From assembly GCA_964610875.1 (NCBI GenBank), contig CAZSWP010000024.1, positions 1 through 31,159 on the forward strand: a stretch of DNA of 31,159 nucleotides, written 5' to 3'. Made by a program: the position numbers and the translations under genes. The notes below the pieces were generated by a model, which saw only the letters and a program-made list of their open reading frames with translations, had not been told where the DNA came from and made no database searches. This document shows positions 12,105 to 16,190 of this stretch, piece by piece. This stretch comes from an uncultured archaeon (GTDB taxonomy: Archaea; Asgardarchaeota; Thorarchaeia; Thorarchaeales; Thorarchaeaceae). The number at the start of each line of letters is the position of its first letter. The first letter of the stretch is position 1.

Positions 12105-13925
12105 CTACTTTCCTTTGCCAACATAATAATAGTTACCATCAGCTTTCTGTTGCTGGTCCAGTTGACTACCTTCTTTATTCACACGAGGTCTACCAGTTTG
12201 GGGATCTCGTCTGAATGTGACACCCATTTCTTTCAGGAATGCGTTCATTCCTATTCTCATCGTTGTGACTGGAGATGCTCTACCCTTCTTACCAGGAATT
12301 CCATTGAATACTACCATACTATCACTGAGATAGTCTGCCATCAGAATGGAGTGTTCAACTACAAATGCAGTACGTAACTTGTCTTGCACTATCTTTCTTA
12401 TAGCACGGGATGTCGCTAGTCTTTGTTCGATATCCAAAAAAGCAGAAGGCTCGTCAAAAAGATAGATGTCTGCATCCTGAGCTAAAGTACGAGCTATTGC
12501 AGCCCGTTGTAGCTCTCCGCCACTTAGTCCTTCAACACTATGGTCAAGAAGATGTTCAAGCTCAAGCTTTCGAATGACTGTTGTCTTGTAGTCAGCAGTA
12601 TCGACGGTATTTCCTCCTGCTTCTCGAAGATACATCCTCAGATTACCTGGATAGTCTTGCTCTATATATTGTGGTTTGTACGCCACCTTTAATTCGAAAC
12701 CGTTGATAGTTTCATCAGGAACTTCGCCTTCATCGGGTTCAAGAACTCCTGCCAACATTCTAACGAAAGTTGTTTTACCTATCCCGTTAGGACCCAGGAT
12801 GCCAATTATCTGCCCCTTTGCAACACGACCACCACGAACTTCTAACTCGAAATCCTCAAACTTCTTCTTCATATCCCCGTATTCTATTAGGGTTTCACTT
12901 CCAGCATATTCTTCATCCTGACTTGTCATCCCTTTGAAAGATATTGACGTCTCTCGGAATCGCATGTTCTCATCAGGAATGTAGCCATCAAGGAATATAT
13001 TGACTCCCACTCTCGTTCCATGAGGATGAGATACAATACCATAAGCTCCAGGACTACCATAGAAGATACAGACATGATCAGAAACATAGTCGAGAATAGA
13101 CAGGTCGTGTTCTACAACTACAACGGTCTTGCCTAGGTCTGAAAGTTTTCTAATCGCTCTTGCAATTCGTAACCGTTCACGTACATCTAGGTATGCGCTT
13201 GGCTCATCAAAGAAGTATATATCACCCTCACGGATAATCGCAGCCGTTACAGCCACACGCTGAAGTTCGCCACCACTCAAGAATTTGATAGATCTGTCCC
13301 AGATGCCTTCAAGATTCATGTCAATCTTGAGTTCTGAGAGTCTTCCAGATGAGTCAGCACTCTCTAAGAGTTCACTGATTGGCTTGTCTGCTATCGAGCT
13401 CAGTTTTGGAAGGTCAGTAATGGTCTGTGGTTTATGAATTGGAACAATATTACCATTTTGTATTTTCTCAAAGAATGGCTGTAACTCAGAACCTCTAAAT
13501 TCCTGGATGATCTCAGTCCACTCAGGCGGAGCATCCACTCTGCCAAGATTGGGTTGAATTTCTCCTGCAAGAATTCTGACAGCGGTTGTTTTGCCTACTC
13601 CATTGGGACCAATGAGACCTAGCACACCACCCTCTTTTGGTATAGGCAGTCGAAAGAGCTTGAACCCATTTACTCCGTACCTATGCGAGGTGTCTTCTTC
13701 AAGCTCTTCTGGAAGGTTGATAATGCTGATGACATTATATGGGCATTTCTTGACACAGATGCCTTCTCCAGAGCAGAGAGCTTCAACAATCACTGGAGGT
13801 TTATCTGGTCCATCAGGAAATATCACGGTTTCATCGCCAGTTCTTACTCTAGGACAGAACCTCCGACATTCATGTGTGCAGTCTTTTGGACGACATCTTT
13901 CTTGATCAACGATAGCAATTCGCAT
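12105..13925 (-). CDS. rli1: Ribosome recycling ATPase ABCE1/Rli1
   Basis: N-terminal Fe-S domain and two ABC cassettes (GPNGVGKTT/LSGGELQR/FDEPS and GPNGIGKTT/LSGGELQR/FDEPS). Hinge TFRRDP..GRPRVNK and C-terminal GNYYY. Confidence 0.98.
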   Translation of the reverse strand: MRIAIVDQERCRPKDCTHECRRFCPRVRTGDETVIFPDGPDKPPVIVEALCSGEGICVKKCPYNVISIINLPEELEEDTSHRYGVNGFKLFRLPIPKEGGVLGLIGPNGVGKTTAVRILAGEIQPNLGRVDAPPEWTEIIQEFRGSELQPFFEKIQNGNIVPIHKPQTITDLPKLSSIADKPISELLESADSSGRLSELKIDMNLEGIWDRSIKFLSGGELQRVAVTAAIIREGDIYFFDEPSAYLDVRERLRIARAIRKLSDLGKTVVVVEHDLSILDYVSDHVCIFYGSPGAYGIVSHPHGTRVGVNIFLDGYIPDENMRFRETSISFKGMTSQDEEYAGSETLIEYGDMKKKFEDFELEVRGGRVAKGQIIGILGPNGIGKTTFVRMLAGVLEPDEGEVPDETINGFELKVAYKPQYIEQDYPGNLRMYLREAGGNTVDTADYKTTVIRKLELEHLLDHSVEGLSGGELQRAAIARTLAQDADIYLFDEPSAFLDIEQRLATSRAIRKIVQDKLRTAFVVEHSILMADYLSDSMVVFNGIPGKKGRASPVTTMRIGMNAFLKEMGVTFRRDPQTGRPRVNKEGSQLDQQQKADGNYYYVGKGK

Positions 13926-14051
13926 AGGAATGTCAACACTCGCCTTTCGATATTGCGATTGTCTTGAATTGTCTATTTAGCGCTTTGGCTGTGTGATTGG
14001 TCAGTTGGAAAACCTTAACTTCTAAGAGAAAAATGTGATTTATGAAGAGAA

Positions 14052-14294
14052 ATGAAGTTAATAGAACGCCTTCTCAACATTCTCAATCCGGGCAGACAAG
14101 CAGTGACTGGTGCATTAGCTCAACCCAATGAACTCAAGGCACAAATCACTCTTATTCGTGCCAAAGCATTTCAAAGGATAACCGGTAGAAGGCTCATTAC
14201 ACTAGAATCTGGTTCTATAACTGAGTCATCTGATATTTCAGATCTAAAGAAAAACCTCTCACCATCTCGAAGGTTACTAAGACGAGGTATTTAA
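14052..14294 (+). CDS. Small basic hypothetical protein
   Basis: 80-aa ATG ORF filling the gap divergent from ABCE1, with a BRE/TATA-like GAAAACCTTAA upstream. No recognisable motif. Confidence 0.4.
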   Translation: MKLIERLLNILNPGRQAVTGALAQPNELKAQITLIRAKAFQRITGRRLITLESGSITESSDISDLKKNLSPSRRLLRRGI

Positions 14295-14318
14295 CTGTCA
14301 GAGCCCAACTATCCCACA

Positions 14319-14392
14319 GCGGGATGATGATGAAGTAGGGATGGGTTAACGCCTAATCAACGTGATGGCCCTATAAACCGCAATCTGACCGC
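14319..14392 (+). ncRNA. Box C/D methylation-guide sRNA (dual guide)
   Basis: Terminal stem GCGG (14319-22)/CCGC (14389-92). Box C ATGATGA (14324-30 or 14327-33), box D' CTAA (14353-56), box C' GTGATGG (14362-68), box D CTGA (14385-88). Intergenic, with both spacers antisense to rRNA-like sequence. Confidence 0.8.
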
Positions 14393-14450
14393 GCATTACG
14401 ATACTAATTAATCTCCATCAAATACAACAGACATCAGGAGCATAATTCCA

Positions 14451-14867
14451 TTGGCATCCTTTCAATGCAACCACGATGGCACTTGCGACAAAGTGAAATT
14501 ATGTTGTATGCAAACAGAGATGACATTGACAAAAGCAGATGCAGAAAGAATCGACAAACTTGGATACGATAGAAAGGAATACTTGAGATTAGCAAATGAT
14601 GGATTTTGCGAACTGGTGAATGTTGATGGCCACTGTTATTTTTATGTACCTGAAACGGGTCTATGTAAGATATATGAACATCGTCCAGAAGGGTGTAGAT
14701 ATTACCCAATTGTGTATAATGCTAGAAAAAGGAAATGTGTGGTGGACGGGGATTGTCCATCAGGTAGTACTGTGACACGACAAGAAATCCGTGATATTTG
14801 TCATCGTGTGCGTAATCTTATTGAACAACTGATGAGGGAGGCAGCTCATGGTGATAGGGCGTGTTGA
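14451..14867 (+). CDS. YkgJ family cysteine-cluster (Zn/Fe-S chelating) protein
   Basis: C..C....CC, LTKADAERI, GHCYFY..TGLCKIYEHRPEGCRYYP, and CP. Confidence 0.88.
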   Translation: MASFQCNHDGTCDKVKLCCMQTEMTLTKADAERIDKLGYDRKEYLRLANDGFCELVNVDGHCYFYVPETGLCKIYEHRPEGCRYYPIVYNARKRKCVVDGDCPSGSTVTRQEIRDICHRVRNLIEQLMREAAHGDRAC

Positions 14868-15705
14868 TCTTCATACTCACTCCTCATTTTCAGATGGCAT
14901 TCTACAGCCAGATGAATTAGTGAGTAAAGCTATAGACATGGGACTTGCAGGACTTGGTCTGACTGACCACGATACTCTTGATGGTATTCCTTTGTTTCTT
15001 AGCGTTGATATCCCAAAGAATTGGCTCAGAGTGCCAGGTGTAGAAATAAGTACCATTCACAACGGTCTTGATACCCATCTATTAGCATATTATGTACTTG
15101 ATAAGCCTAGAGAGTTAAAACAGGCATTAGCAGAGCTGGAGGAACATCGAAAGAAACGGTTGCCGAGGATGATAAGGAAATTAGAAACACTCGGTATCAG
15201 TATAGATTCTGAGGCTGTGGATAAGATGCTGCAGGATGTCACATCACCAGGAAGACCACACCTTGCAAGACTCATGGTCAAATCAGGTGCAGTAGATTCT
15301 ATTCAAGAAGCATTCCGAGAATATATTGGTGAATGTAGACCTGCTTACATTCCACGAAAACGAATCACGACAATTGAAGGAATCAAGATGGTTAGAAACG
15401 CTGGTGGTGTTCCAGTACTAGCTCACCCGTTGCTAATGAGAGCGCAAGACCTACGATCGATAGTGATAGAACTAGCAGATGAGGGGCTCACAGGGATAGA
15501 GGTCGAATATGAATATTCGCGGCAGAAAGTAAAAGGCACGCAAGATGATGTTAGAAAGGCAGCAGCAGGATTAGACCTAATCGAGACGGGAGGAAGTGAT
15601 TTTCATGGCGATTCAATTGGCCCAAAGATGGGGTGCGCCACCGTATCAACAAAAGTAGTAGGTAAACTTTGGGAAGCTGCTAAGAGAATAAGGGAGTCCG
15701 GTTGA
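14848..15705 (+). CDS. PHP-domain phosphoesterase (TrpH/YciV-like; 3',5'-bisphosphate phosphatase or 5'-3' exonuclease family)
   Basis: DLHTHSSFSDG, LTDHDT, GVEIST, HLLAY, GRPHLAR, VLAHP, GIEV and GGSDFHG. Confidence 0.92.
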   Translation: MVIGRVDLHTHSSFSDGILQPDELVSKAIDMGLAGLGLTDHDTLDGIPLFLSVDIPKNWLRVPGVEISTIHNGLDTHLLAYYVLDKPRELKQALAELEEHRKKRLPRMIRKLETLGISIDSEAVDKMLQDVTSPGRPHLARLMVKSGAVDSIQEAFREYIGECRPAYIPRKRITTIEGIKMVRNAGGVPVLAHPLLMRAQDLRSIVIELADEGLTGIEVEYEYSRQKVKGTQDDVRKAAAGLDLIETGGSDFHGDSIGPKMGCATVSTKVVGKLWEAAKRIRESG

Positions 15706-16190
15706 TGATGAAATTCATTGTGGATGCAATGCTTGGAAAGTTGTCTGTTTGGTTGCGGCTTACTGGCTATGATACTCTATATGAGCCAGATGTACACGAT
15801 GATGAGCTTCTCGTTATTGCTGAAACAGAATCACGAACATTATTGACGTCTGATAATAATCTATTCGAAAGAGCCAAAGCAAGGGGGTTAGAGTCACTAC
15901 TTGTCCGAGGATCTGTTGATGAAAGGATTGTTTTTGTTTTTGATAAGCTAAATCTTACTACAGAGATCGATCCAAGTAAGGCACGTTGTTCTAAGTGCAA
16001 TGGTGTTCTGGTTGAGATTACCAAATCGGAAAAAGAGAAAATCATAGACTTAGTACCTGTAATGACCTATTCACACTACAATTTGTTTTGGTGGTGCCAG
16101 AGATGTAATAGCGTCTTCTTCCAAGGAGGATATTGGTCAAATATTCTCAAATACATGAAGAAAATAGAACAGATGGTGAATAGATCTTAG
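15702..16190 (+). CDS. Mut7-C (DUF82) PIN-like RNase with zinc ribbon
   Basis: KFIVDAMLGKL..WLRL.GYDT, RTLLTSD, RCSKCNG and CQRC..FFQG. Confidence 0.9.
   Translation: MMMKFIVDAMLGKLSVWLRLTGYDTLYEPDVHDDELLVIAETESRTLLTSDNNLFERAKARGLESLLVRGSVDERIVFVFDKLNLTTEIDPSKARCSKCNGVLVEITKSEKEKIIDLVPVMTYSHYNLFWWCQRCNSVFFQGGYWSNILKYMKKIEQMVNRS

Follow-up and report, generated by a model that had tools for sequence, protein, structure and literature searches.

Positions 14319-14392 of the window (the whole 31,159-nucleotide stretch of DNA that was analyzed) carry a 74-nt element that, judged by its own sequence and by those of its relatives, is a real and conserved box C/D sRNA of Thorarchaeota, a lineage of Asgard archaea. 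The element is flanked by a conserved 80-aa ORF and a YkgJ-type gene. Very probably it is a stand-alone archaeal guide of ∼74 nt that has a promoter to itself, leads a YkgJ-PHP-Mut7C gene run and binds 16S rRNA at C952 and helix 28; its loop may make a further contact. Taken as predicted, it is a member of an ordinary class of RNA that combines an uncommon long-range pair of targets with a plausible third contact of eukaryotic type. The fullest version of this reading, which we favor by a small measure, is a three-contact Asgard guide in which a C952/C1382 clamp would be joined by a loop contact to helix 33, and in some lineages the C'/D' motif and D' guide would be decaying in a eukaryote-like manner.

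Table 1. Predicted features of the thorarchaeal box C/D sRNA and its promoter, in window positions.
Feature	Position	Strand	Remarks
TATA box (TATTTAA)	14288..14294	+	purine-rich BRE-like stretch upstream
Terminal stem, 5' arm	14319..14322	+	pairs with 14389-14392; double changes at 3 of 4 pairs
Box C (ATGATGA)	14324..14330	+	14323-25 form the K-turn bulge (3 nt)
D' spacer and guide	14331..14344	+	14332-43 pair with 16S 1378-1389
Box D'	14345..14348	+	GUGA/GCGA in the family; degenerate GUUA in the window copy
Inner 3-bp stem, 5' arm	14349..14351	+	pairs with 14361-63; 95.7% paired
D'-C' loop	14352..14360	+	family core UCAUCAR; window copy has one mismatch to helix 33
Box C'	14365..14371	+	AUGAMCC in the family, AUGGCCC in the window copy; 3-nt bulge at 14364-66
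D spacer	14372..14384	+	14375-84 pair with 16S 949-958
Box D (CTGA)	14385..14388	+	invariant in homologs; the search pattern selected for CTGA
Terminal stem, 3' arm	14389..14392	+	covariation with the 5' arm

The element has the terminal C (RUGAUGA) and D (CUGA) boxes, K-turn and closing stem of archaeal C/D RNAs, together with short spacers of similar length (∼12 nt) and guides of 10 and 12 pairs, Watson-Crick at N+5, on the 16S rRNA of relatives. A preliminary description made from the letters alone had called it an unannotated box C/D sRNA. That assignment is supported by the boxes, the K-turn stem, the homologs and covariation, and the 4-bp GC stem, box C, box D and D guide (14375-84) that it listed are all found in the sequence. 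The element is indeed unannotated: no Rfam family reaches its gathering score at 14319-14392, and even with the cutoff at E 5 the Rfam scan returned nothing there.

Homologs spanning almost exactly the element were found by blastn in 15 of 24 same-family genomes, and in 12 of these 15 the limits of the match fall at 69-72 and 141-147 of the 211 query positions. A strict scan for C/D boxes plus stem gave 13 matches in the host genome versus 2 in the reversed genome. When GTDB genomes were scanned with the sRNA pattern, 56 archaeal matches were obtained, mostly labelled Thorarchaeota; the host, which had been guessed to be an Asgard archaeon, is likewise one of the Thorarchaeota. The same scan returned 20 bacterial matches, whose interiors are unrelated and whose number is about that expected by chance. 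The pattern occurs in 41 of 57 same-family genomes. Among 163 other Asgard genomes only 3 match, apparently by chance and with no guide-like interior. A covariance model finds a single copy in each of 38 of 60 same-family genomes. The homologs were aligned as 47 distinct sequences. Box C, box D and the D guide are nearly invariant among them, the invariance of box D being partly an effect of the search pattern that selected it. Stem positions in this alignment are paired in 94.7% of cells, with double-sided changes at 7 of 11 pairs; none of 500 shuffles equalled the observed pairing, in a test that relatedness inflates, and no slid register came close.

Nine same-family genomes have the neighbouring genes in place and no visible C/D RNA, from which we conclude that the sRNA was lost there; its absence from the syntenic site in several genera means that it is dispensable. 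At the loci of 18 genomes of other Asgard families, no C/D RNA was seen near the YkgJ gene. In the sister family, one locus (L234 of genome G025) has a syntenic C/D RNA directly ahead of the YkgJ gene. It shares the inner stem, and its loop is similar. Helix 34 of 16S is matched by its D' guide over 11 pairs, its D guide lacks a target, and the locus is possibly a case of guide swap at the same site.

The inner C'/D' motif runs in the order D' (GUGA/GCGA), 3-bp stem, 7-11 nt loop, partner strand, 3-nt bulge, GA and stem II. Box D' reads GTGA in 27 of the 47 sequences, GCGA in 9, GTTA in 3 and TTGA in 3. The GA of C' stands at 1b/2b in 44 of 47, with GG in the same three rows that carry GUUA, and the 3-nt bulge before it varies freely. 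The first pair of the inner stem forms an A-U/G-U/G-C series, and the stem shows one change from C-G to U-A. The tandem sheared G-A pairs of D'/C' are GA/GA in most homologs, and the window copy is one G-A short: in this copy and two others, GUUA opposite GG is a double change that converts the second sheared G-A into G-U. Because sheared G-A pairs are the L7Ae site (PMC3116282; PMC5389607), the inner motif of the window copy is probably weak. The usual C-G pair of stem II, the stem II pair of C'/D' being read by Nop5 (PMC5389607), is flipped to G-C, which counts against the explanation favored here.

Spacer lengths are 14/13 in the window copy, 13/13 in 28 and 12/12 in 8 of the 47 rows, and three lineages or more have shortened both spacers jointly. 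Equal spacers are what a symmetric archaeal RNP would need. We take the C'/D' register to be fixed because the spacers are symmetric and were shortened together. The D' box proposed at first, CTAA at 14353-56, is present in only 1 of 47 rows, and the accompanying reading of C' as GTGATGG is out of register by three nucleotides. The GGG/CCC pairing noticed between the spacers is real, but it belongs to stem II of the true C'/D' motif. A reading of C' as an overlapping GUGAUGA was rejected, with only 26 of 47 rows versus 44 for the downstream GA.

The TATA box overlaps the stop codon of the 80-aa ORF, and the predicted start lies near 14318-19. Counted from the C box, the 47 homologs have an A+T fraction of 0.81-0.94 at -35 to -32 and a purine fraction of 0.91 at -40; a W5 run is present in 32 of them versus 4-15 in control windows, and the BRE/TATA signal is kept ∼25-30 nt ahead of the stem, which supports indirectly the predicted expression of a small RNA from 14319-14392. 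A sigma-70 promoter scan was set aside, the model being inapplicable to archaea. The host genome encodes fibrillarin, Nop5 and an L7Ae-family gene. A YkgJ gene (CxxCxxCC type) adjoins the sRNA in 43 of 44 loci, and the conserved 80-aa ORF (14052-14294, + strand, no Pfam match) lies beside it in 36 of 44. An ABCE1/RLI gene lies upstream in divergent orientation, so that within 12105-16190 of the window the sRNA sits between ABCE1/RLI (ribosome recycling) and the run of YkgJ, PHP and Mut7-C RNase genes. This context makes a link between the sRNA and RNA metabolism possible.

The host 16S gene is assembled only to about nt 507 and its 23S gene only as a 3' scrap. As the target sites of the host are unassembled, targets were read from the rRNA of relatives, which is 82-88% identical. 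On this rRNA the D guide matches 16S 949-958, the target that had been named for it, over 10 Watson-Crick pairs, and N+5 falls on C952, as predicted at the outset; the E. coli row in Dennis 2015 (PMC4644070) served to verify the numbering. Of the first 23 family 16S genes inspected, 21 contain the target, and the best site of the D spacer has a shuffle P of 0.013. The D guide would accordingly be predicted to direct 2'-O-methylation of C952, in helix 30. Host tRNAs gave no match in guide position, and metagenome scans for the host 16S signature and for a loop-compensating 16S variant gave no match and are uninformative for the host 16S. Among genomes without the sRNA, L029, L030 and L019 (G019, G012 and G013) carry substitutions in otherwise invariant D or D' target sites; other such genomes keep both sites.

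The D' guide (14332-43) makes 12 pairs, two of them G-U, with 16S 1378-1389, in the 3' strand of helix 28 plus the lead-in to it. This is the best site for the D' spacer in 16S and 23S together (shuffle P 0.006), and a run of at least 8 pairs with it is found in 40 of 47 homologs. The D and D' spacers each pair with family 16S, and the initial view of the RNA as a dual guide was right. The nucleotide predicted for the D' arm is C1382 in 29 of the 47 homologs, C1383 in 8 (the forms with a 12-nt spacer) and C1381, the window type, in 3, with no match in 7; a U/C change in the guide faces a G of the target. The two targets lie ∼430 nt apart in sequence and come close only in the folded head domain, at odds with the two nearby sites less than 100 nt apart of the preliminary description. 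Its own D' target, Um871, is absent from family 16S and 23S, with at least three mismatches everywhere. The 867-880 region of family 16S reads GCGAUAAACGGGCC or close variants, and the guide then proposed does no better than chance against shuffles (P 0.11). A 12-pair match of that guide at ∼145 in one relative was discarded, being poor in the host's own 16S fragment.

Some D' spacers have diverged: those of L011, L012 and L016 were possibly retargeted, as assessed on proxy rRNA, with a 9-nt match near the 3' end of 23S in G001 and G016 and an 8-nt match just upstream of the D target in G015. Thorarchaeal 16S genes (L017-L046) contain many hairpin inserts of ∼30 nt that resemble bulge-helix-bulge introns, located near 908, after C1386, and near 1340 and 1375, and some inserts reach several hundred bases. 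In G002, G003, G016, G024 and G213 a 30-nt intron after C1386 splits the helix-28 site, so that the full D' duplex needs spliced rRNA in these genomes.

The D'-C' loop has the consensus CUCAUCAG, the core of which is conserved although unpaired. This core, UCAUCAR, is complementary to the hairpin loop of 16S helix 33 (∼1013-1019), ∼60 nt 3' of C952. In the 17 genomes with both RNAs, the helix-33 site ranks top of 1487 16S positions, with 88% Watson-Crick pairing; 15 of the 17 have 6-7 loop pairs, separated by a gap of ∼55 nt from the D duplex. The chance of landing within 100 nt of a target is 9% for a random 6-mer and 2% for a 7-mer. The loop duplex amounts to -8.9 kcal/mol for the consensus versus -2.6 for the window copy, whose single mismatch leaves only 4 pairs with relatives' 16S. 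At the third core base the loop has A except in genus g4 and G015, which have G, and the facing rRNA base is C in G003, G053, G059, G015 and G055 and U elsewhere, which gives G/C in 4 genomes, G/U in 1, A/C in 1 (G055) and A/U in 11. Of 328 variable 16S columns, no more than 9 follow the loop state this closely, and among these the helix-33 column is the one that faces the loop. A Fisher test that ignores kinship gives P 0.01 for this covariation, which involves two lineages and one mismatch. G015 and g4 stand apart in both trees, but a clade of the two is not rejected (p-AU 0.09 and 0.23), and we therefore count two probable compensatory events, not five. Two other loop partners were considered and rejected: the correlation is negative for a 16S site near 409, and a 23S site near 1394, although equally good, shows no covariation, its base remaining U in G003 and G015. 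None of the 7 homologs in which the D' guide no longer matches has lost the loop core, and the loop therefore goes with the D guide.

Other readings of these data have to be weighed. It is very improbable that the element is no RNA gene, its boxes being due to chance or part of a conserved leader of the downstream mRNA: the position ahead of the YkgJ gene run would suit a leader element and the folding z-score is only -0.48, but weak folding is normal for protein-free C/D RNAs, and the boxes, K-turn geometry, covariation, guide complementarity and promoter all suit a C/D RNA. The model with CTAA at 14353 as box D' and U871 as the target, less than 100 nt from the other site, is scarcely credible at all. 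The window copy does have a CUGA-like word at this position, but the near absence of that word from homologs and of such a target from family rRNA speaks against it, and lopsided spacers would result. A look-alike site in helix 21 (∼E. coli 590-600) could be targeted by the D' guide instead of, or besides, helix 28, which we consider unlikely. Helix 21 offers 10-11 pairs in most genomes, fits as well as helix 28 in genus g4, and fits better in G008, whose guide and own helix-21 site share a change. For the window copy, however, helix 28 provides 12 pairs against 10 and -21.5 kcal/mol against -15.8; in G002 and G022 the guide continues to fit helix 28 despite drift of the helix-21 site, and known archaeal guides hit the same helix-28 strand. 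Possible, if rather doubtful, is an RNA that is functionally a single guide, like many eukaryotic snoRNAs, with only C952 methylated and a D' spacer that is a non-catalytic anchor or is decaying. The loss of the D' guide in 7 of 47 homologs would agree with this, as would a predicted D' site that slides among 1381, 1382 and 1383, a C'/D' motif that is non-canonical, most so in the window copy, and an invariance of the D guide that is partly a search-pattern effect. Against it, the GA pairs of D' and C' are kept in most rows, and the symmetry of the spacers survives repeated length changes. We prefer a dual guide acting on C952 and helix 28.

The role of the loop is the point on which a rival reading has a serious chance, though short of an even one: the sRNA may be a plain dual guide whose loop stays off the rRNA and is what remains of an inverted C-type box, pairs with box C or C' of the same RNA while no protein is bound, or is a protein site. 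In its favor, box C and the loop core are exact reverse complements of each other, the loop is joined to the C' region in the minimum-energy fold, the syntenic C/D RNA of the sister family keeps a similar loop despite different guides, and G055 has an A-C mismatch in the pairing to helix 33. Yet 12 of 47 rows have a C'-side bulge other than GAT, and in 11 of these the local pairing is broken with the loop core kept. The A-to-G changes in the loop weaken the pairing with box C and restore a Watson-Crick pair to 16S, and the base after the core, mostly G, pairs with C or U of the rRNA and not with the A of box C. On balance, we lean towards extra base-pairing of the eukaryotic type, in which the loop would touch the helix-33 hairpin loop as a third contact that does not methylate.

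Among the long-range dual guides that have been described as likely folding aids are sR17 and sR15 of Nanoarchaeum, directed to helices 28 and 30 (Dennis 2015, PMC4644070). The thorarchaeal sRNA resembles Nanoarchaeum equitans sR17, itself a long-range dual guide on the 16S head domain with a proposed folding-chaperone role (PMC4644070), and the D guide of sR17 covers nearly the same 3' strand of helix 28 as the thorarchaeal D' guide. We claim no homology between the two: sR17 predicts U1384 and has its partner site on the other strand of helix 28, whereas the thorarchaeal sites are C1382 and C952 with the arms swapped, and sR17 has a 4-nt K-loop where the thorarchaeal sRNA has a stem with a conserved 7-11 nt loop. 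The D' guides of Ignicoccus sR56 and Sulfolobus sR118 are complementary to 1377-1388, and both RNAs have long D'-C' inserts (PMC4644070 supplement), but their predicted nucleotides are other than those of the thorarchaeal sRNA. No C952 guide is found among the sRNAs of the seven species of that set (PMC4644070). Most archaeal dual guides hit targets within 100 nt of each other, with three families more than 100 nt apart (Lui 2018); the ∼430 nt between the thorarchaeal targets places this sRNA outside the majority class.

Extra D'-C' loop pairing has been described for yeast, human and plant snoRNAs, and in yeast it stimulates methylation up to five-fold (PMC3116282). The thorarchaeal sRNA is like the yeast snR70-type snoRNAs in having a short primary guide and, in the D'-C' stem-loop, a conserved stretch of 4-11 nt that is complementary to rRNA (van Nues 2011, PMC3116282; Arabidopsis, PMC8053127). 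At the level of the family it has the conserved D'-C' element complementary to rRNA near the target by which van Nues 2011 recognizes such pairing. Extra pairing in the snR70 type lies mostly directly beside the target, whereas the contact predicted here is ∼55 nt away, and the thorarchaeal sRNA is compact with symmetric archaeal spacers, unlike the snR70 type. In the literature searched, the coverage of which is incomplete, we found no report of extra D'-C' pairing in archaea, where long D'-C' inserts are known, nor any catalogue of C/D guides from Asgard archaea. Neither 952 nor 1382 has an Nm at its estimated equivalent in Arabidopsis 18S, and a plant Cm near 1383 was not confirmed.

We propose that the sRNA would assemble with L7Ae, Nop5 and fibrillarin, with its D guide directing the methylation of C952. 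The D' guide would bind 1378-1389 in helix 28 and methylate C1382 in most members of the family and C1383 in the forms with a 12-nt spacer. Bound in this way, the sRNA would clamp the 16S head domain at the strands that enter and leave it and may aid its folding. The D'-C' loop would probably dock on helix 33 and support the short D guide, an interaction that would be weakened in the window copy. As the C'/D' motif of this copy has lost its second sheared G-A pair, its D' arm probably binds and may not methylate; if it does, C1381 would be the nucleotide modified.

The family provides two predicted lineage-specific rRNA marks and a long-range clamp of the 16S head such as has been proposed for Nanoarchaeum. 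If the loop contact is true, the extra-pairing design of eukaryotic snoRNAs already exists in an archaeal sister lineage; without it, the sRNA is an ordinary representative of a known class. Its natural variants (canonical, GUUA/GG and D'-guide-lost) span the range of C'/D' decay from archaeal to eukaryotic.

Other RNA genes or candidates were noted along the way. A C/D candidate at G000 C10:84999 (minus strand) has two 10-nt guides to adjacent 23S sites, probably in helix 69; its D' and C' boxes flank a 5-bp stem. Just past the window lies another C/D candidate, L218 (G000 C24:32511, minus strand); it is well formed, has 13/13 spacers, shows no strong match when compared with the rRNA of a relative and would be an orphan or a tRNA guide. 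Finally, positions 1-71 of the window hold, on the minus strand, a tRNA gene cut by the window edge, which was missed by ARAGORN and seen by Rfam.
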